DNA from: a phage
Sequence record: PZ445551.1
Strand: one strand, 5' to 3'
Length of the DNA stretch: 64,000 nt
Both the position numbers and the translations under genes were made by a program. This document shows positions 3,928-62,204 of this stretch, one piece after another. The number at the start of each line of letters is the position of its first letter. Position 1 is the first letter of the stretch. Under the pieces are notes generated by a model, which saw only the letters and a list, made by a program, of their open reading frames with translations, made no database searches and was not told the origin of the DNA.

Positions 3928-4317
3928 ATGCGCAACCTGGTTTCTGTTTCTAACGTTGAAAAATTTCAATCCTTGCAGGGTATCGTTAACAACGTAGCGC
4001 CTTTTTTAGTCAATGGCTTGATTGCAAAGATGAAAAATAAACATCATGCGGCATGGTCTGCTTACTGCTTTGATAATGATGAAAAAGCGGCTGAAATGAT
4101 GTTAGATATGCTGTTAAATAGTGTAGAAACATCTTTACCGGAAAACATCGCAGAAGAGATCACCTATCGTTATAATATGGCGATCACTTACCAGGAGGTT
4201 GCGCAATTTAATATGATGGATGATGACGAACAACAGGATCAGGAAATGTTTTGGGAGTATGCAGATCGTCAATCGGCTTTTGATGAAAAGTTAGCGATGT
4301 ATTATAACGAATATTAA
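3928..4317 (+). CDS. hypothetical acidic protein (129 aa)
   Basis: track ORF 3892..4317 starts inside the hairpin loop; trimmed to ATG 3928. Confidence 0.5.
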   Translation: MRNLVSVSNVEKFQSLQGIVNNVAPFLVNGLIAKMKNKHHAAWSAYCFDNDEKAAEMMLDMLLNSVETSLPENIAEEITYRYNMAITYQEVAQFNMMDDDEQQDQEMFWEYADRQSAFDEKLAMYYNEY

Positions 4318-4333
4318 TACACGGTAAAAGAAA

Positions 4334-4357
4334 GGGGCGCACTAAGCGCCCTTTTTT
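4334..4357 (+). terminator. rho-independent terminator
   Basis: ggggcgc-actaa-gcgccc hairpin followed by TTTTTT. Confidence 0.65.
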
Positions 4358-4703
4358 GTATTCTTTTTTCACGATGGAAGTAACACGTAAAGAATAAACG
4401 TAAAAGGTGGTGTAAAACAGCCTAAAACCGATTATAACCGCTTAAACAAGGTAGTAATGACTAATCACCTTGCCAGGATGAAAAAGCTGTTATAAAGCTA
4501 TTTAGAGCGTTTAAAGCACATAGGAAATAATTTGCTTTTTATCTTGCCTTTTATCCTGCTTTTGATTATTATTATGGAACGGGCGGCACCTGGGGACAGG
4601 GGAAGGTAATCACCGGAAGATCCCGCTATATATTGATAGCTAATATCTATTAAACAACAAAACATCAAAGGAATAAACTATCAAATCTTTACAATTCTAC
4701 CTA

Positions 4704-4763
4704 TTGACACAGGATCACCCTTATAATAAGATGTATCCAGTAGGGCGGGAAATGGTTTCCCGC
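4704..4763 (+). promoter_or_regulatory. promoter + conserved 5'-UTR stem-loop cassette, copy 6
   Basis: TTGACA 4704-4709, 17 nt, TAAGAT 4727-4732; hairpin GCGGGAAATGGTTTCCCGC 4745-4763. Confidence 0.6.
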
Positions 4764-4782
4764 TTGATATAGGAATCATACC

Positions 4783-5016
4783 ATGATCGAACAAATTAAA
4801 AGCACTACACCAAATGTTAACGGCAATGTTTCACACTTTATCGGGGATAATGAAAGGGGTACACCATACGCCGCCGTAACCGTGCAACCTAATGGCGATT
4901 ATTGGTTTACCGTGTACGGATCATATTCTTTCGGACGCCCGGCACATGATAAGATCTTGCAAGCGGTTAAGCCTACTGGGAAGAATATCACAGCAGAAAA
5001 ATTTTATAAAAAATAG
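4783..5016 (+). CDS. hypothetical protein (77 aa)
   Basis: track ORF; RBS taggaatc. Confidence 0.55.
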   Translation: MIEQIKSTTPNVNGNVSHFIGDNERGTPYAAVTVQPNGDYWFTVYGSYSFGRPAHDKILQAVKPTGKNITAEKFYKK

Positions 5017-5091: not shown

Positions 5092-5475
5092 ATGAGCAAT
5101 ATCAGCAACCTGGCGGCTACTGTAAACGGTAAAGATTTTAACGGCGCTGTAGATCGTGATCCTATGTGGTGCTTATCAGTGTTTAAAGGCGATCTGGTTG
5201 AAGTTAGAACAACCGAAGGGTATAGCGATGATTATAAATGCGAGATCCATTTACACAACTGGTACACGGGTAAAACTTATGCGCTGAATCATGCGTTTAT
5301 CGGCAAGGTTGAATATAGAGAAATGATCGACGAAGAAACGGGGCAAGATTTTAGCGAGCATGTTTATATTCGTTCCGAGACATTAGCCGAACGTTTGATC
5401 GAGAAAATGAAAGCAAAAAATAAAATTAATTTATCTCATTGGATTGATATAACAAACGATCCAGCTTATCAGTAA
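5092..5475 (+). CDS. hypothetical protein (127 aa)
   Basis: track ORF; RBS acgaggaatc. Confidence 0.55.
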   Translation: MSNISNLAATVNGKDFNGAVDRDPMWCLSVFKGDLVEVRTTEGYSDDYKCEIHLHNWYTGKTYALNHAFIGKVEYREMIDEETGQDFSEHVYIRSETLAERLIEKMKAKNKINLSHWIDITNDPAYQ

Positions 5476-5490
5476 ATAACATTTCATACC

Positions 5491-5516
5491 AGGGCGCACA
5501 AAGCGCCCTTTCTTTT
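5491..5516 (+). terminator. rho-independent terminator
   Basis: agggcgc-acaa-gcgccct hairpin followed by T-rich run. Confidence 0.6.
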
Positions 5517-5722
5517 TACCTAAATAAAGATGATAGCTTTTACCTATCAAAAACGTTCACCGAAAAAAGTGAATAGATCGCGGTATCGAGCTAATCAAGG
5601 AGCAGATGAACAACCATACCATGAAGATCATAAGGCGCTTACAACGTGTTTTAGACCGCTTATTTTTAATTTCTCAATGTAACTATCTGGCAAAAACAGC
5701 CTTTTTCTTGTCTTTCCTCTTA

Positions 5723-5740
5723 AATGATAATCATTCTTAT
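5723..5740. promoter_or_regulatory. Fur-box-like site AATGATAATCATTCTTAT
   Basis: near match to the enterobacterial Fur box GATAATGATAATCATTATC. Confidence 0.35.
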
Positions 5741-5780
5741 TTATAGCTGATTATTTATGCAATAAACTGAATAATGCAAT

Positions 5781-5797
5781 AATGATAATCATTCTTA
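5781..5797. promoter_or_regulatory. Fur-box-like site AATGATAATCATTCTTA
   Basis: second copy, preceded by ATAATGCAAT. Confidence 0.35.
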
Positions 5798-6090
5798 ACT
5801 TATGACCATCTAACCTATAAAATAATAAGTTATCTAACTAAATTAAAACTAATTATCTCACCTTTATTTATAACTTACTGTTACTATCTCATTGATAACC
5901 TTATATTAAACAACAATAACCAATATAAATCATTACTAAGCTAAATATAATCTATCTAACCTTTAAAACTATAACTATAATCTATCGAATTGTTGCACAA
6001 AGTAACTATTAAATTGTTAGTAACATTACTAAATAATTAATATCCTATCTATTTATGATCTAATCTTTATCTTCCTATCTATTACCTAAA

Positions 6091-6121
6091 TAATCATTTC
6101 ATACAGTAATCATTTCATACA
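6091..6121. repeat. tandem direct repeat AATCATTTCATACA x2
   Basis: two adjacent near-identical 15-16 bp units. Confidence 0.5.
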
Positions 6122-6157
6122 ATAATTATAACAAGAAATATAATTCGCAAGCGTATC

Positions 6158-6192
6158 ATTAGCAGCCTATGCCGGACACATAGGCGGCTAAT
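6158..6192. repeat. 14-bp inverted repeat ATTAGCAGCCTATG / CATAGGCGGCTAAT around 7-nt spacer
   Basis: one mismatch; GC-rich island in AT-rich context. Confidence 0.5.
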
Positions 6193-6663
6193 AATAACGC
6201 AACTACACACCCCACATAATAACCATCACCGATAGTTATTATTTGTGCTTATGTAGCTTGCAACAATTGCAAGCGCAACAATATACATGGTATATTGTAT
6301 CCCTTACATTGTTGCGGTGCGTTATTATTAGCTAATGTTTAGAACATTGGCTATAATATAAGCTAAGTAATAAGCTATGCAATAATAAACATGGTGAATA
6401 ATGACATTGATGATCATAATGCGCCACCTTCCAGGGGGCGCTATGTGAACACAAAGAAATCTTTCTTGTCAAGAAAAAATATTGCCATTATTGCGCAAAA
6501 TTATTTATATCTGAATAGATGATTTTTCATACTATTGCCCCATATAACATACCTCATTTGTTGAGCATAGTTATAGCCTATTTGTTGAGCCTACTTTCTT
6601 AAAAGCGCAATAAATCAGAATTATCTTGATTTTTAGTCTGTTTTATAGTATAGAAAGTATGCA

Positions 6664-6679
6664 AATGATAATCATTATC
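6664..6679. promoter_or_regulatory. Fur-box-like site AATGATAATCATTATC
   Basis: 16/16 identity to the 3' 16 nt of the Fur-box consensus. Confidence 0.4.
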
Positions 6680-6849
6680 AGCTATCTTCCACGGGTAGCA
6701 CTATTTCACGCCAGATCATTTCATTTGGCAAGGTGTATATAGATGTTTAGACTTGCCAAGCCATTGATTTACTTAGAATTTATCTGTTTTGTTGTGAGTA
6801 GAGCCTTTCTTGCTCAGAAAATAATCAAAAGTCTTATAAGTCATTGAAT

Positions 6850-6874
6850 GATAATGCAAATGATAATTATTCTC
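6850..6874. promoter_or_regulatory. Fur-box-like site GATAATGCAAATGATAATTATTCTC
   Basis: repeat of the ATAATGCAA-ATGATAAT unit seen at 5771-5797. Confidence 0.35.
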
Positions 6875-7236
6875 ATTGATATTTGAGGGGGACGGTCGGC
6901 AGAAATCGGGGGGCGCTGAAAATCGCGTTAAGCACCTCTCGCAAGCGAGCAGTATTTTGCGGCAAGTTATTGATATTATTGGCTTTACGCTTATGAAAAG
7001 GGGGTGTGTCGAAATAAATCGGGTATACCGGAAAATTTTTGTGGCATAGATATTTATTTGTCTATATTATGTACAAAAGGGTGTGTTAAAAATATTAGGT
7101 ATATATAGAATAATTGATAGGGAAATCCTATACTAATTCCTCCATTAATGATGTTTCTATGTTACTGTTCTTGTAACAGATGAAAAGACGCTGTATGATG
7201 TGTGGCATGAAACGTAAATTTATAAAGGAGTCTGAT

Positions 7237-7596
7237 ATGTGTGTTCCTCTTAGCAGTCCACTGCTGTTAGAATTTTACAAAGCATGGATGGAAGATCATT
7301 CCTCAATGCATCGTGAGAATGTTGGTTTGTGTAATTGCCTTATGGATTACCTGGCAACCACTATGTCAAAGAAAAAACCTACGGAAGAAGATATAGAATA
7401 TTTCAAGATGGTTCGTAGCAAAACGCTGGAAGAGATGAAACTGCAATTCACGTGTGCTGGGCTATCCTCCTTTCTACCCTTTAATTATGATCTTCTGTGT
7501 TATGAAGATGAAGGTAAGACACATTCTTGCCATACCAACCCAAAGAGATTGCAGTGGGTGAAAGATCGTATTGCCGATTCATGCAAGGGTGTGTAG
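7237..7596 (+). CDS. paralog family member 1 (LLxFYxxW...GLCxCL...QFxxAGL...LPFN...RxQWVxDRI)
   Basis: track ORF 7180..7596 trimmed to ATG 7237 after RBS aaggag; shares motif with 7743, 10034 and 11312 genes. Confidence 0.55.
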   Translation: MCVPLSSPLLLEFYKAWMEDHSSMHRENVGLCNCLMDYLATTMSKKKPTEEDIEYFKMVRSKTLEEMKLQFTCAGLSSFLPFNYDLLCYEDEGKTHSCHTNPKRLQWVKDRIADSCKGV

Positions 7597-27485: not shown

Positions 27486-28148
27486 TTATTTAATATTCAA
27501 TTTTGCACAAAGACGTTGTACCGCTTTGGCATCGAACAAACTCCCACGAATAGTTCTCTTTCCTGATTCATTCAGATGTTTTGCAATCGTCATATATGGC
27601 GTTTTACAAGCTCTGTATGCAACTAAAGAATCTTTTAAAGAAAGCGCAAACTCTTTTGAGCGTTTTGCTTCTTCCGTTTTCGTATAATCTGTTCTTTTGT
27701 ATTTAGGGTTTGCTGCACCAAGAAGCGTTCCCTTCGCTTTTGCTACTTTAAGGCTCTTCTTAACACGATCAGATATTGCACGAGCCTCTTCTTCTGCCAG
27801 AACTGCTAAAATATTTATTATCATATTTTCAGCGGAGGGCATAGTTGCTATTCGTACATTAATCATCTCTAACAAGGTTGCAACAGAAGCTGTGTTACGT
27901 CCAAGACGGTCAACCTTAGCAACAACAAGTGTAGCACCTGTTTCTTTGCAAAGATTAACAGCTTTTACAAGCTCTCTACGTTGCTTCCAATCGCCTTTAC
28001 CCGAATAAAACTCTGCAAAGCTACCTACAATAGTATAATTTTCTTGTGAATCCAGGAAGCGTTGGATATCTGCTTCCTGTGATTCTATACCATACTGGTT
28101 GCCTTGTTGTTTCTTCTTAGAAAGTCGATGATACAGTACAAACTTCAT
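27486..28148 (-). CDS. serine recombinase (resolvase/invertase family)
   Basis: RLSKKKQ catalytic-Ser region, VVAKVDRLGRNTASVATLLE, AVLAEEEARAISDRVKKSLKVAKAKG, C-terminal HTH. Confidence 0.8.
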   Translation of the reverse strand: MKFVLYHRLSKKKQQGNQYGIESQEADIQRFLDSQENYTIVGSFAEFYSGKGDWKQRRELVKAVNLCKETGATLVVAKVDRLGRNTASVATLLEMINVRIATMPSAENMIINILAVLAEEEARAISDRVKKSLKVAKAKGTLLGAANPKYKRTDYTKTEEAKRSKEFALSLKDSLVAYRACKTPYMTIAKHLNESGKRTIRGSLFDAKAVQRLCAKLNIK

Positions 28149-59616: not shown

Positions 59617-59692
59617 GGTTCCATAGCTCACTGACGAGAGCGCACACCTCATAAGTGTCGAGGGCAGGGATTGTAACCCTGGGGAACCTCCA
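59617..59692 (+). tRNA. tRNA-Met(CAT) (or Ile2), atypical T-loop ATTGTAA
   Basis: manual cloverleaf: acceptor GGTTCCA/GGGAACC, D-arm GCTC..GAGC, anticodon loop CTCATAA, CCA encoded. Confidence 0.6.
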
Positions 59693-59723
59693 TTTAAAAG
59701 GAGGTGCTATGCATCTCCTATAT

Positions 59724-59809
59724 GCAAGTGTGGTGGAATTGGTGATACACATTGTGCTTAAAACGCAACGCTTAAATGCTTGAGGGTTCGAATCCCTCCA
59801 CTTGCACCA
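59724..59809 (+). tRNA. tRNA-Leu(TAA), type II
   Basis: acceptor GCAAGTG/CACTTGC, anticodon loop CTTAAAA, long variable arm, T-arm GAGGG-TTCGAAT-CCCTC. Confidence 0.75.
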
Positions 59810-59824
59810 ACACCTAAAAATATC

Positions 59825-59853
59825 TTGACATTTACTTAGTTTTTTGTTATAGT
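59825..59853 (+). promoter_or_regulatory. sigma70-like promoter TTGACA-17-TATAGT
   Basis: read directly; 11 nt upstream of the tRNA-like element. Confidence 0.5.
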
Positions 59854-59864
59854 TACTATGAAAA

Positions 59865-59946
59865 CGGGGTGTATCTCACCTGACTTCTAATCAGGCGTTA
59901 ACCGAGTAATTGGAGTATGCAGGTTCGAATCCTGTCACCCCGGCCA
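59865..59946 (+). tRNA. atypical tRNA-Arg(TCT)-like element lacking a D-arm
   Basis: perfect acceptor CGGGGTG/CACCCCG, T-arm GCAGG-TTCGAAT-CCTGT, anticodon hairpin CCTGA-CTTCTAA-TCAGG, but only 7 nt between acceptor and anticodon stem and a 23-nt insert before the T-arm. Confidence 0.4.
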
Positions 59947-60009
59947 AAAAGTTTTAAAAACTACTTGACAAGCAAGATAGTTTTATGTTAGATTTAAAGT
60001 ATAATAACT

Positions 60010-60099
60010 GGAAGGTAGGGCGCAGCGGTGCGCAACCAGGTTTGAACCCTGGCCCATTGTAGCGATACGGTGATGGTTCGACTCCATTATCTTCCTCCA
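60010..60099 (+). tRNA. tRNA-Ser(TGA), type II
   Basis: acceptor GGAAGGT/ATCTTCC, anticodon loop TTTGAAC, long variable arm, CCA encoded. Confidence 0.75.
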
Positions 60100-60117
60100 A
60101 ATTCTCTTAGGAGCTTT

Positions 60118-60270
60118 ATGAATTATAAAACTATTGGACAGGTTGTTACCGGAGTTAAGATTGTAAATAATAAAGTTGTTTATGAGTATTCTAATCTTCA
60201 ACAATCTGAAGATGGTAAGAATATTCGTATGGTAAAAACAGAACAAAAAGATTCCGGTTGTTTTGAATAA
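60118..60270 (+). CDS. small hypothetical protein (50 aa) embedded in tRNA array
   Basis: track ORF 60070..60270 trimmed to ATG 60118 after RBS aggag so it no longer overlaps tRNA-Ser. Confidence 0.45.
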   Translation: MNYKTIGQVVTGVKIVNNKVVYEYSNLQQSEDGKNIRMVKTEQKDSGCFE

Positions 60271-60278
60271 TTAAAAAC

Positions 60279-60364
60279 GGTAGATTGGTGAAATGGTAGC
60301 CACAACAGTTTGCTAAACTGTCGTCGGAAACGGCGTGTAGGTTCAAGTCCTACATCTACCGCCA
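60279..60364 (+). tRNA. tRNA-Ser(GCT), type II
   Basis: acceptor GGTAGAT/ATCTACC, anticodon loop TTGCTAA, long variable arm, T-arm GTAGG-TTCAAGT-CCTAC. Confidence 0.8.
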
Positions 60365-60498
60365 AGTTATCTTTAATGTAGCTTGTAATCTTACTTTAGC
60401 AGAGTAAATCTTCGGCAAGTGGCGGTAACCACTTTACCGATACCCCAATACTTCATAGCTAAGTGCCGCAAACACTGGCTATTTTAAAGATAATTTAT

Positions 60499-60574
60499 AC
60501 ATCGTTAGCTTAGTTGGTAGAGCAAGGGGCTTTTAACTCCAAGGTCGAAGGTTCGAATCCTTCACGATGTACCA
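60499..60574 (+). tRNA. tRNA-Lys(TTT)
   Basis: acceptor ACATCGT/ACGATGT, D-arm GCTT..GAGC, anticodon loop CTTTTAA, T-arm GAAGG-TTCGAAT-CCTTC. Confidence 0.85.
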
Positions 60575-60579
60575 AACAC

Positions 60580-60666
60580 GTAGGTATCGCATAGCGGCAA
60601 TTGCTGGAGACTGTAAATCTCCTGCCCTTCGGGGCTTCGTTGGTTCGAGTCCAACTACCTGCACCA
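60580..60666 (+). tRNA. tRNA-Tyr(GTA), type II
   Basis: anticodon arm GGAGA-CTGTAAA-TCTCC, variable-arm hairpin GCCCC-TTCG-GGGC, T-arm GTTGG-TTCGAGT-CCAAC. Confidence 0.8.
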
Positions 60667-60673
60667 AATTAAA

Positions 60674-60758
60674 GATGGATTGGCCTAGTGGTTGGGCGAC
60701 GGACTGTTAATCCGTGAACGAAAGTTCTAGCAAGGTTCAAATCCTTGATCCATCGCCA
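60674..60758 (+). tRNA. tRNA-Asn(GTT) with unusually long (15-nt) variable arm
   Basis: acceptor GATGGAT/ATCCATC, anticodon arm ACGGA-CTGTTAA-TCCGT, variable hairpin GAAC-GAAA-GTTC, T-arm CAAGG-TTCAAAT-CCTTG. Confidence 0.7.
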
Positions 60759-60837
60759 AATAGTGCTTGTAGAGTTAATAGAAACCTCTAGAATTTTCTA
60801 GAATTGTAGGTATCAAATCCTACCAAGCAAATATTTT

Positions 60838-60912
60838 GCTCCTATCGTATAACGGCTATTACGGTTGCCTTGTAAGCAACTTATCAGGGTTCGAGTCCTT
60901 GTGGGAGCACCA
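60838..60912 (+). tRNA. tRNA-Thr(TGT)
   Basis: acceptor GCTCCTA/TGGGAGC, anticodon arm GTTGC-CTTGTAA-GCAAC, T-arm CAGGG-TTCGAGT-CCTTG. Confidence 0.8.
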
Positions 60913-60935
60913 ATTTTAACTCTAAAGGAGTGTAT

Positions 60936-61259
60936 GTGACAGAAAAAGAGTTAGAGAAATATTTTAATATCAATGTTTTCGATGGTTTTGATGATATTGA
61001 AGATGTTGAAAGATATTATGAAGTAGAGTTAGATAAGGATAACATTGTAATTCTTTCTGCCACTTATGATTGTGCATATTATGAAGGCGAATCTCACGTT
61101 TATTTTTATGATATGAAAACATCTTTGTTTTATGAAGTACACGCATATCATTGTTCTTGTTATGGCTTAGAAGGTCAGTGGGAACCTGAAGAAATAGGTG
61201 ATTTGGACTTTACTATTGCATATCTAAACAGACGTGGTTCATCTACTATTTTAAAATAA
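60936..61259 (+). CDS. hypothetical acidic protein (about 107 aa) embedded in tRNA array
   Basis: track ORF 60930..61259; likely GTG start at 60936, 5 nt after RBS aaggag. Confidence 0.5.
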   Translation: MTEKELEKYFNINVFDGFDDIEDVERYYEVELDKDNIVILSATYDCAYYEGESHVYFYDMKTSLFYEVHAYHCSCYGLEGQWEPEEIGDLDFTIAYLNRRGSSTILK

Positions 61260-61273
61260 ATATCAAAAGCCTC

Positions 61274-61303
61274 TTGACAAAGGGGCTAATAATATGTTAG
61301 AGT
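61274..61303 (+). promoter_or_regulatory. sigma70-like promoter TTGACA-18-TAGAGT
   Basis: read directly; about 12 nt upstream of tRNA-Gly. Confidence 0.5.
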
Positions 61304-61314
61304 AATATTATTAA

Positions 61315-61389
61315 GCGGGTATAGTGTTAATGGTAGCATATGAGGTTTCCACCCTCCAGGTGCAGGTTCAAGTCCTGTTACTCGCTCCA
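61315..61389 (+). tRNA. tRNA-Gly(TCC)
   Basis: acceptor GCGGGTA/TACTCGC, anticodon loop TTTCCAC, T-arm GCAGG-TTCAAGT-CCTGT. Confidence 0.8.
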
Positions 61390-61488
61390 AGATTATTTAA
61401 ATGGAATCGTTAGAGAAAATTTCTCTTTTCGCTCATGGTTTTCTCCTTCAAACTCTAGCGGTTCTTTTTAAGTGATTTTTTAGTTTAT

Positions 61489-61563
61489 TGGAGATTAGCC
61501 TAGTGGGAAGGCAACGGCCTTTGAAGTCGTGATGACTAGGTTCGATTCCTAGATCTCCAGCCA
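61489..61563 (+). tRNA. tRNA-Gln(TTG)
   Basis: acceptor TGGAGAT/ATCTCCA, anticodon arm ACGGC-CTTTGAA-GTCGT, T-arm CTAGG-TTCGATT-CCTAG. Confidence 0.8.
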
Positions 61564-61570
61564 ATATTTA

Positions 61571-61646
61571 CAGTGCGTAGCGCAGTTGGTAGCGTGGGAG
61601 CCTTGGACGCTTCAGGTCGCAGGTTCGAGTCCTGCCGCACTGACCA
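61571..61646 (+). tRNA. tRNA-Pro(TGG)
   Basis: acceptor CAGTGCG/CGCACTG, D-arm GCGC-AGTTGGTA-GCGT, anticodon loop CTTGGAC, T-arm GCAGG-TTCGAGT-CCTGC. Confidence 0.85.
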
Positions 61647-61651
61647 AATTT

Positions 61652-61726
61652 GCAGAGATAGCTGAGACGGATTAGTGCTACCCTGAAAAGGTAGAAAGGA
61701 TGGATCGTTACCATCTCTCTGCACCA
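61652..61726 (+). tRNA. tRNA-Phe(GAA), atypical T-loop ATCGTTA
   Basis: acceptor GCAGAGA/TCTCTGC, anticodon arm CTACC-CTGAAAA-GGTAG, T-stem GATGG/CCATC. Confidence 0.75.
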
Positions 61727-61803
61727 AATAACACCATCCAAGGAGTAGACTTGGTTAACTGTCAATAGCACATTGAGGCTTCTTACAGTGGTGTACTTAT
61801 TAT

Positions 61804-61888
61804 GGCTAAGTGGTGGAATGGTATACACGATACGCTTAGAACGTATTGCCCCAAGGGATTGTGAGTTCGAGTCTCACCTTAGCTACCA
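61804..61888 (+). tRNA. tRNA-Leu(TAG), type II
   Basis: acceptor GGCTAAG/CTTAGCT, anticodon arm ATACG-CTTAGAA-CGTAT, long variable arm, T-arm GTGAG-TTCGAGT-CTCAC. Confidence 0.8.
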
Positions 61889-61903
61889 AATTATTACAGA
61901 TTG

Positions 61904-61982
61904 TGCGGGATAGAGGAGTCTGGTCGTCCTCGCCAGTTTCATATGCTGGAGATCATCGGTTCGAATCCGATTCCCGCCTCCA
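61904..61982 (+). tRNA. tRNA-Met(CAT) (second CAT tRNA; elongator Met, initiator or Ile2)
   Basis: anticodon arm CCAGT-TTCATAT-GCTGG, T-arm ATCGG-TTCGAAT-CCGAT, acceptor with mismatched 1-72 pair. Confidence 0.7.
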
Positions 61983-62040
61983 ATAAATACCTCCCTTCTG
62001 GTGTAATGATTAAGTTACATTGACACTTCAAGGAACTCAT

Positions 62041-62123
62041 AGCCGGGTAGATTTAAAAGAGTATGGTACTCAATATGGCTCCAAACCATAGATCAAGGGG
62101 TTCGATTCCTCACCTTGCTGCCA
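62041..62123 (+). tRNA. atypical tRNA-Trp(CCA)-like element (possible pseudo-tRNA)
   Basis: anticodon arm TATGG-CTCCAAA-CCATA and T-loop TTCGATT present, but 11-nt insert between acceptor 5' strand and D-arm and imperfect acceptor/T stems. Confidence 0.3.
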
Positions 62124-62128
62124 ATTAT

Positions 62129-62204
62129 TGTGGTATCGTACAGATGGTTAGTACACTCGACCGATAATCGAGAAACAACGGTTCGACTCCGTTTACCACG
62201 ACCA
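62129..62204 (+). tRNA. tRNA-Ile(GAT)
   Basis: acceptor TGTGGTA/TACCACG, D-arm GTAC-AGATGGTTA-GTAC, anticodon arm CTCGA-CCGATAA-TCGAG, T-arm AACGG-TTCGACT-CCGTT. Confidence 0.8.

Follow-up and report, generated by a model that had tools for sequence, protein, structure and literature searches.

A gene-free gap in a Justusliebigvirus genome as the probable terminus of a linear phage chromosome, with predicted Fur-type operators and a conserved folded element

The DNA analysed in this study is a stretch of 64,000 nucleotides from a phage (sequence record PZ445551.1; hereafter, the window), and its subject is the gene-free gap at positions 5517-7179. A megablast search with positions 5400-7300 retrieved 86 phage records, of which Escherichia phage VivaForever was the best match (100% identity), followed by members of the genus Justusliebigvirus (phi92-like; 93-97%). 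The window is a Justusliebigvirus genome, and its GC content (37%), its cluster of 15 tRNA genes and its blocks of genes on one strand agree with the phi92-like group. The gap follows a homologue of Phi92_gp248 (5092-5475), and the first left-end gene begins at 7180. In related records the syntenic gap is located between the Phi92_gp248 homologue and the first genes of the phi92 map, and the phi92 reference sequence both starts and ends in it. A previous reading of this DNA, made from the sequence only, had claimed that the region lacks any open reading frame (ORF) of 60 codons or more. This is correct, as the longest ORFs within it encode 57 aa (6876-7049, TTG start) and 50 aa (5530-5682); the corresponding gap in Escherichia, Klebsiella and Citrobacter phages of several genera is 1.5-2 kb long and gene-free in all of the genomes compared.

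The same sequence-only reading listed seven features of the gap, and six of them were found again, mostly conserved in relatives. These are: the absence of ORFs; a tandem repeat (6089-6126 according to Tandem Repeats Finder, with a period of 16, 2.4 copies and 90% matches); an inverted repeat around CCGGACA, which is a hairpin GCCTATG/CATAGGC (6165-6185) lengthened by TTAGC/GCTAA; a long-range inverted pair (6187-6201 with 6318-6332; 15 nt, 100% complementary); a duplicated (C/T)ATTTGTTGAGC (6549-6572 and 6573-6596, 79% identical); and a GC island (6880-6960, 55.6% GC versus 31.4% for the region). The seventh, repeated ATCTAAC and CTATCTA words, reflects low-complexity composition only: each word occurs three times, and the commonest 6-mers occur 4 times, versus a mean maximum of 4.65 in shuffled sequences. 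These words were consequently rejected as iterons, being no more frequent than composition gives. The strongest repeat of the gap was absent from that list. It is the 13-mer AATGATAATCATT, exact at 5723, 5781 and 6664 and with one mismatch at 6859, which has no further copy at up to one mismatch in the whole 64 kb.

The central part of the gap corresponds to the direct terminal repeat of phi92. In the phi92 record (FR775895.2) 343-bp direct terminal repeats are annotated at 1-343 (PHI92_DTR-L) and 148270-148612 (PHI92_DTR-R); the two copies are identical to one another, and alignment of both phi92 ends with the window showed that they are approx. 98% identical to positions 6588-6930 (343 bp, + strand). 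The window and its GenBank record contain one repeat copy, which suggests that the assembly merged two copies and that the resulting circle was opened elsewhere. The ends of independent records coincide with these limits: that of VEcB is located at window position 6587 and those of phi92 and Salmonella phage UAB_1 at 6930. For the Justusliebigvirus BME3 a 342-bp repeat was called by PhageTerm (PMC12210895), the subfamily has been reported to end in direct terminal repeats (PMC12695924), and the rV5-like phage LL12 has a 459-bp repeat, likewise in non-coding DNA (PMC6658697).

Since the collapsed terminal repeat spans 6588-6930, both terminase cut sites would be located inside the gap, one in the duplicated TTTGTTGAGC repeat and the other in the GC island. 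The repeat begins with AGCCTACTTTCTT, within the second copy of the duplicated TTTGTTG↓AGC (the arrow marks the boundary), and ends with GAAAATCGCGTTA↓AGCACC. On the left, the duplicated ATTTGTTGAGC (6555-6592, + strand) spans the boundary TGTTG↓AGC (cut 6587/6588) with its second copy; AT-TGTTGAGC is invariant in the 7 genomes aligned, and the TGTTGAGC core is present in 13 of the 13 genomes scanned. On the right, the boundary CGCGTTA↓AGCAC (cut 6930/6931) is placed within 6872-6950 (+ strand), which is the most conserved part of the gap across phage genera. In the 13 genomes, which represent several genera, the junctions read (A/T)TGTTG↓AGCAC and CGCGTTA↓AGCAC, i.e. a direct repeat GTTR↓AGC(A/C)C, and the predicted repeat lengths are 329-480 bp. 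We infer from this comparison that GTTR↓AGC(A/C)C is the terminase cleavage motif. Another candidate, TGTTTAGA as a shared recognition word, was rejected, as 5 copies were found in the whole window versus 4.9 expected.

Two matches to the core of the integration host factor (IHF) site, WATCAANNNNTTR, were found (versus 0.27 expected), both on the - strand, and IHF binding is predicted from the sequence. One (6757-6769) is located within the repeat and kept in phage genera, while the other (6963-6975), 33 nt outside the repeat, is partly conserved. A motif scan of the region revealed no Chi sites and an ordinary frequency of GATC. Alignment of the gaps further showed islands of conservation amid drifting sequence. 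From left to right, these are: an intrinsic terminator (5491-5519, + strand), closing the right-end gene block and having a stem and T-run invariant in 7 genomes of 3 lineages; a block at approx. 5530-5600; a Fur-like box; a folded element; the left junction; TCTTGATTT; the inverted repeat TTGGCAAG...CTTGCCAA followed by GCCATTGAT; TTGAAT with a hexamer array; and the right junction. The edges of the gap carry two related palindromes, detected by repeat search and alignment: TGATAG-N7-CTATCA (5531-5549) on the left, inside the conserved block, and TGATAGG-N5-CCTAT (7115-7131) on the right, just after the conserved TATATAGAAT and before the gene at 7180. In the 64 kb this pattern occurs only at 4634, 5531 and 7115 (0.77 expected).

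The 13-mer copies belong to a set of Fur-like sites. Sites were scored against the 19-bp E. coli consensus GATAATGATAATCATTATC, with 2000 dinucleotide shuffles as the null. The region contains five separate sites with at least 14 matches out of 19 (17, 16, 15, 14 and 14) versus a mean of 0.33 in the shuffles, an enrichment seen in none of the 2000; three of them have at least 15 matches (0.04 expected), and the other 62 kb contain two sites at 15 and none higher. The measure was calibrated on the 26-kb ent-fep cluster of E. coli K-12, in which scores of at least 15/19 occurred only in the fepD-entS and fepB-entC intergenic regions, which are known to be Fur-regulated, and fepA-fes reached 13. 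Fur operators of this cluster score 13-16 on the same measure, and the entC site contains the phage's 13-mer.

Box 1 (5720-5738, 14/19) has the AATGATAATCATT core at 5723-5735, of which AATGATAAnCAnT shows no change across the Escherichia and Klebsiella phage genera. Box 2 (5778-5796, 16/19) is partly conserved as TGAnAATnnTT. Box 3 (6661-6679, 17/19), found in the consensus scan, is the best of the window. Box 4 is a Fur-type hexamer array (14, 15 and 14 of 19) following a conserved TTGAAT (together 6844-6880); other genera keep GATAAT-like hexamers there, and the phiWec188 variant scores 17/19. Across genera the sequence of the boxes drifts and their positions and hexamer character are maintained, GATAATGATAATTATTCTC of phiWec188 being an example with hexamers of the GATAAT type. 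A site is found approx. 245 nt after the gp248-type gene. Another is located 72-74 nt into the repeat in most of the Escherichia-phage genomes scanned and deeper (100-236 nt) in TSP7_1, Citrobacter Tr1, the IMG/VR sequence L034 and Klebsiella phages, and a further one is generally placed 60-80 nt before the right end of the repeat, with none at that position in Citrobacter Tr1. These matches argue strongly that the five boxes are E. coli Fur sites, an identity in which we have good confidence; their regulatory consequence is hypothetical. Among more distant relatives with a gp248 homologue 60-78% identical, Fur-like boxes scoring 15-16/19 occur in ORF-poor DNA downstream of that gene (L014, positions 4962 and 5328; L016, position 4437), and in the DNA examined these relatives have neither the folded element nor the junction motifs.

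Two candidate promoters, with elements and spacing read off the sequence, accompany the boxes. TTGATT-16-TATAGA (6627-6654, + strand) is located within the repeat, where TCTTGATTT is invariant in all genera, and TTGAAT-18-TATTCT (6844-6873) is placed at the array. They would set box 3 over +1 (approx. +1 to +19) and box 4 over the spacer and -10, which is the usual geometry of a repressor. Among the gene products of the phage are ribonucleotide reductases of class I and of class III. Enzymes of both classes are iron-dependent, which provides a possible motive for manipulating iron homeostasis. No description of Fur sites in these phages or in the Stephanstirmvirinae was found in the literature searched.

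To the left of the repeat, an element of approx. 170 nt (6165-6332) has a conserved fold. RNAalifold, applied to 8 and then to 12 distinct sequences, gave a hairpin followed by a stem-closed domain with three inner helices. Hairpin 1, GCCTATG-CCGGACA-CATAGGC (6165-6185), has 7 pairs, of which 3 show compensatory changes, and is 100% paired in the 12 sequences; the multi-branch domain (6187-6332), supported by covariation jointly with hairpin 1, has a 15-bp closing stem (6187-6201/6318-6332) and inner hairpins. In an independent MAFFT alignment 98.5% of 540 cells were paired and 12 of the 45 pairs had changed on both sides, values reached in 0 of 500 shuffles, and partners slid by 1-3 columns paired in 21-47%. 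The fold z-score versus shuffles was -5.4 on the + strand and -7.2 on the - strand. A covariance model detected the element in every Stephanstirmvirinae locus examined and no copy in more distant relatives (L014-L017), and blastn found it conserved in 133 phage records. Searching 5300-7400 against Rfam 15 at permissive E-values gave only two chance-level matches (E at least 0.6). The reality of the conserved fold can be stated with good confidence. A hairpin or cruciform of DNA would give rise to Watson-Crick covariation just as well, and both RNA and DNA, as well as both strands, are possible. Just before the element, a candidate -10 hexamer TATAAT (6139-6144, + strand), with CATACA 17 nt upstream, was read from the sequence; a -10-like hexamer (AATCAT or AATAAT) occupies the same place in other genera.

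The DNA preceding the folded element is an AT-rich, G-depleted tract (5800-6145, 346 bp) with 20.5% GC and 4% G on the + strand, which includes the 16-nt tandem repeat. In relatives its composition is kept (G 5-11%) and its sequence is not. The copy number of the tandem repeat is 2.4 in both the window and phage Paula, while phage inny has one unit more, annotated there as a repeat_region.

Parts of the gap recur in bacterial chromosomes. A blastn search of 5426 complete E. coli genomes with positions 6840-6965 gave some match in 523 of them, including more diverged versions, and always in the chromosome. The matches include a 46-nt alignment of 95.7% identity (approx. 41 nt are near-exact by eye) that spans the right cut site. 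Sensitive local blastn revealed three blocks that are co-linear in the islands and in the gap: block 1 (5650-5681, + strand; TTTAGACCSCTTATTTTTAATT), with 84-91% identity to three islands; block 2 (6722-6771 in the alignment, 6725-6771 as a feature), composed of the inverted repeat TTGGCAAG...CTTGCCAA, with TTGCCAAnCCnTTGAT conserved, and the IHF core match; and block 3 (6872-6950, + strand), which is the GC island with the right cut site and contains the 46-nt alignment. In the islands, block 2 keeps the IHF core and block 3 keeps TGATATTTG, two G-runs and GCGTTR↓AGC; no motif like the left cut was found near their right-cut block.

The islands are approx. 8.5-13 kb in size and contain a tyrosine integrase and approx. 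2 kb without ORFs. They are located beside tRNA-Thr (proA) or tRNA-Leu, or inside the thiM thiamine pyrophosphate (TPP) riboswitch, which is duplicated at both island ends. Representatives are L018 2593-12909 (E. coli AR436, NZ_CP029111) as well as L022, L025, L030, L031, L007, L008 and L019. They encode an O-like replication initiator beside TGTGTAAT iterons. Among the loci with sufficient flanking sequence, approximately half also code for homologues of structural proteins of the phage, namely a tape-measure protein (27% identity in approx. 476 aa, E approx. 1e-30), a tail protein resembling Dit (50-60% identity, with E values as low as 3e-81) and a major-capsid-like protein (21% over 348 aa; also assigned to phrog_29). 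The best phage matches of the island Dit homologue are in Justusliebigvirus (61%) and Phapecoctavirus-like phages (56%), all others having at most 30%. No terminase or portal was found among the annotated features or family matches of the island proteins scanned, a search that was not exhaustive. Islands that occupy different sites (leuX, thiM riboswitch) share 90-96% identity in their ORF-free part (L007 17320-18726, L019 9288-10692, L008 9523-10873), which is unusually high for DNA without annotated genes.

As integrative elements with their own replication module and part of a virion gene set, the islands resemble phage satellites, and the blocks shared with the gap, together with the capsid, tape-measure and Dit homologues closest to this phage group, make them candidate satellites dependent on this subfamily. 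We have moderate confidence in this reading of the islands as satellites, with virulent phi92/phAPEC8-type phages as presumed helpers. The satellite-like copying of the cut-site block in turn argues that 6872-6950 is a packaging signal, and the lack of the Fur array in the islands argues that the Fur boxes are not part of that signal, while being silent on their role. The islands also have no copy of the folded element, as judged with the covariance model. No report of such satellites was found in the literature searched. Matches in IMG/VR were rejected as packaged island DNA, since the identifiers of these uncultivated virus genomes suggest prophage predictions from isolate genomes, not viromes; the second island type is absent from IMG/VR, and among the species representatives of GTDB only 3 mis-binned contigs of metagenome-assembled genomes were found. 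The cargo of the islands includes GmrSD, and in one strain BREX is found nearby. In the AR436 island a Fur-like box (L018 8143-8161, 16/19, GCAAATGATTTTCATTATC) with the same ATGCAAATGAT flank as box 3 of the phage is located within a 980-bp intergenic gap, approx. 3.9 kb from the cut-site block. The serine recombinase of the islands shows weak similarity (28-34% over 70-118 aa) to the product of the phage ORF at 27702-28019 (- strand).

We consider it quite probable that the gap represents the end region of a linear phi92-type genome whose assembly was closed to a circle and then opened at another place, with the packaging, Fur-gated promoter and folded-element roles proposed here. For the terminus itself confidence is high; its repeat and two boundaries are shown by homology. 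Positions 5517-6587 would then form the non-coding right end of the unique sequence, 6588-6930 the sole retained copy of the repeat, and 6931-7179 the leader of the early genes at the left end. Once the DNA has been injected, host RNA polymerase may start at promoters in and beside the repeat that are overlapped by Fur operators, so that iron status would control early transcription or, alternatively, Fur would be sequestered by the replicating genomes. A collapsed genome has 4-5 boxes, to which the second copy of the repeat adds two, and Fur would thus meet a large number of sites. On concatemers, terminase would recognise the G-rich block around the right boundary and cut at the two directly repeated GTTR↓AGC(A/C)C sites, the candidate IHF site within the repeat may aid DNA bending at packaging, and the repeat would afterwards be duplicated, as in T7-type phages. 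The folded element, approx. 250 nt left of the repeat, may be a small non-coding RNA or a single-strand DNA structure acting in end processing or replication. Of the functions suggested by the sequence-only reading, a packaging or major regulatory region is supported by the terminal repeat inside the gap; an origin of replication is not, as DnaA boxes, iterons and a skew inflection are lacking.

Several observations weigh against parts of this interpretation. With one repeat copy in the window, the terminal redundancy of this particular phage is deduced from homology and from annotations made in other laboratories, and the Fur and IHF sites are predicted from sequence matches. The sigma-70 scan of this AT-rich DNA performed at chance (13 promoter-like matches versus 13.3 expected), the terminator scan found only the gp248 terminator, and the spacing of the promoter at box 4 is not kept in phAPEC8; because of the chance-level matches and this lost spacing, the regulatory effect of the predicted Fur binding is put forward as a hypothesis. 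The islands retain the cut-site block and omit the neighbouring Fur array. Wobble evidence for the fold is thin and slightly favours the - strand (on the + strand 3 cells are G-U and 8 are A-C, numbers that are exchanged on the - strand). Finally, the public contigs gave no sign of packaging of the islands: the 14 of 25 metagenome contigs inspected at full length do not end at the cut site and lack a terminal overlap.

The Fur likeness could alternatively be coincidental in AT-rich DNA, with the AATGATAATCATT-type palindromes serving as operators of a dimeric phage protein or as repeats for the small terminase subunit. The symmetric placement of two boxes, approx. 70 nt within each repeat end, would suit such a role, yet the matches reach 17/19 and include the exact entC core on a measure that gives known Fur operators 13-16, the drift in other genera preserves GATAAT-type hexamers, and the islands, in copying the packaging block, leave out the hexamer array, which speaks against a role in terminase function; we regard this explanation as unlikely. 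Far less credible is a gap filled with small protein-coding genes, as implied by the VivaForever annotation (PP925843), in which PHANOTATE-style calls place 8 tiny ORFs. One 34-aa ORF (6743-6847) does have an AAGGTG Shine-Dalgarno sequence, but in phAPEC8 a frame-shift cuts it to 7 codons, while the motif TTGCCAAnCCnTTGAT that it overlaps is conserved. Other annotators call nothing in the gap. PHROG matches were obtained for both flanking genes and for none of the six longest ORFs tested. The ORFs are truncated or frame-shifted by indels in relatives, with the DNA motifs beneath them conserved. They thus give no sign of the small coding transcripts that, according to the sequence-only reading, would speak against its view.

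Two further explanations concern the left half of the gap. According to one, which is compatible with a terminus and to which we give a little less than an even chance, 6146-6340 is a gene for a structured non-coding RNA of approx. 185 nt on the + strand, starting approx. 7 nt after TATAAT and ending at the 15-bp closing stem with a U-rich tail. The near-complete pairing with compensatory changes in 12 pairs, the z-score on the + strand, the retention in 133 records and the perfect -10 hexamer, similar in other genera, all fit such a gene, but it would lack a canonical terminator and an Rfam relative, the wobble cells lean towards the other strand, and a DNA hairpin or cruciform predicts the covariation equally well. 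According to the other, the gap or its left half is a replication origin, in which the AT tract unwinds and the fold serves initiation or priming as a single-strand structure that transcription out of the Fur-box region might activate. The AT-rich tract is an unwinding-type element with a strand asymmetry kept in relatives, the strongly conserved fold fits either strand or DNA, and the islands have their own AT-rich iteron region at the equivalent place. Against it, the region contains no match to the DnaA box TTWTNCACA and no iterons (its only repeat families being the Fur-like boxes), and no initiator gene is found beside it. The islands carry their own O-like initiator and TGTGTAAT iterons without the folded element, and so do not borrow this part of the gap. 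Cumulative GC skew, the check proposed in the sequence-only reading, was computed over 143,999 of 146,096 bp, rebuilt from three pieces; its turning points are located approx. 13, 50, 90 and 126 kb away from the repeat, and to either side of the gap it increases without an inflection, the outcome named in that reading as speaking against its view. The turns at 13 and 50 kb match changes of skew sign in the window near 20 and 56 kb. In phages skew mostly follows transcription and is a weak test of origins. On balance, an origin at this place appears doubtful.

The proposed terminus can be compared with several known systems. The phi92 repeat is homologous to that of the window, with the same synteny (gp248 homologue to first left-end genes), the same length of 343 bp and the same non-coding nature; the repeats of BME3 (342 bp) and LL12 (459 bp) are of similar kind. 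The terminal repeat is already annotated in relatives; in the literature searched on phi92-type repeats it is recorded only as a feature. As far as checked, there is no earlier description of the cut motif, of the Fur-type operators and IHF site, of the covarying fold or of the mimicry by islands. Phages T7 and T3 have pac sites at the concatemer junction, and a hairpin intermediate left of the right-end repeat was reportedly described in their processing by Chung et al. in 1990. The window resembles them in its short non-permuted terminal repeat, in early host-polymerase promoters (here candidates) at the left end and in a strong inverted-repeat structure that precedes the right-end repeat by a few hundred bp, but there is no sequence relation, the phage is a myophage with a 146-kb genome, both boundaries carry one motif and the mechanism is a proposed one. 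The T5 first-step-transfer or injection-stop region, said to have been treated by Heusterspreute in 1987 and Davison in 2015, is likewise a long stretch without genes that is associated with a terminal repeat and contains many direct and inverted repeats; however, it is located inside a 10-kb repeat and has DnaA boxes, whereas none occur here and there is no sign of two-step injection.

The boxes resemble the E. coli Fur operators of fepD-entS and fepB-entC in their 14-17/19 matches, the exact entC core and the arrays of GATAAT-type hexamers, but they are located at the terminus of a virulent phage rather than at iron-uptake genes, and their promoter overlap is predicted. In the literature searched, reports of Fur boxes in phages were limited to two cases, the sit operon of temperate lambdoid phages and the Stx phages. 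The nearest precedent in that literature is the Spo0A boxes of Bacillus phages phi29 and Nf, which are sites of a host global regulator at early promoters or genome ends of a lytic phage, by which the phage reads host physiology (PMC2731898); regulator, host and phage type differ, and binding and its effect have been experimentally shown for phi29 and are predicted here. As regards packaging, the candidate IHF site beside the cut site and the islands' look-alike of a helper packaging signal have counterparts in other phages and satellites. Lambda cos has an IHF site (I1) in cosB, and the P4 and PICI satellites copy the cos packaging site of their helper. Unlike in these systems, the ends here are direct repeats and not cohesive, and the presumed helpers are virulent myophages. 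The island gene set (capsid, tape-measure, Dit) is not known to fit any of the defined satellite families P4-like, PICI, cfPICI, PLE and PICMI.

A broader interpretation, offered tentatively and held by us to be less probable than not, is that the gap is a compact cis-acting module by which a virulent coliphage family wires its first-exposed DNA, and hundreds of later copies, to Fur, and that the packaging block of this module is mimicked by an undescribed satellite family. If so, the link to Fur would either gate early transcription on iron starvation or titrate Fur and derepress iron uptake for the ribonucleotide reductases, and the satellites would bring their own capsid, tape-measure and Dit proteins and be present in approx. 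10% of complete E. coli genomes, with virulent phi92/phAPEC8-type myophages as their helpers. Phages of the phi92-like and phAPEC8-like groups have a broad host range and are therapy candidates, and their genome ends have been treated as an annotation detail; exact ends and a cut motif would make it possible to orient and engineer the genomes correctly. With Fur operators at the terminus, infection would be coupled to the availability of iron, which is limiting in the gut, urine and blood, where such phages would be used. The folded element is a new, well-supported structure without an assigned family. Were the islands satellites, many E. coli strains would carry a parasite of, and a potential defence aimed at, this phage group, affecting its host range and therapeutic efficacy, and they would represent a rare case of satellites exploiting virulent coliphages.

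Some minor observations concern the remainder of the window and the related records. Upstream of the gap, positions 4317-4783 form a second, smaller gene-poor gap, which contains the third TGATAG-N7-CTAT palindrome (4634-4650) and at whose equivalent place two terminators are annotated in phage Paula. The 15 tRNA genes are clustered at 59617-62204 on the + strand. Four records named "Campylobacter phage" (MG065639, MG065645, MG065656 and MG065689; host C. jejuni) share 95.5% identity with the region in this E. coli phage, and they are likely mislabelled or contaminant coliphage genomes.

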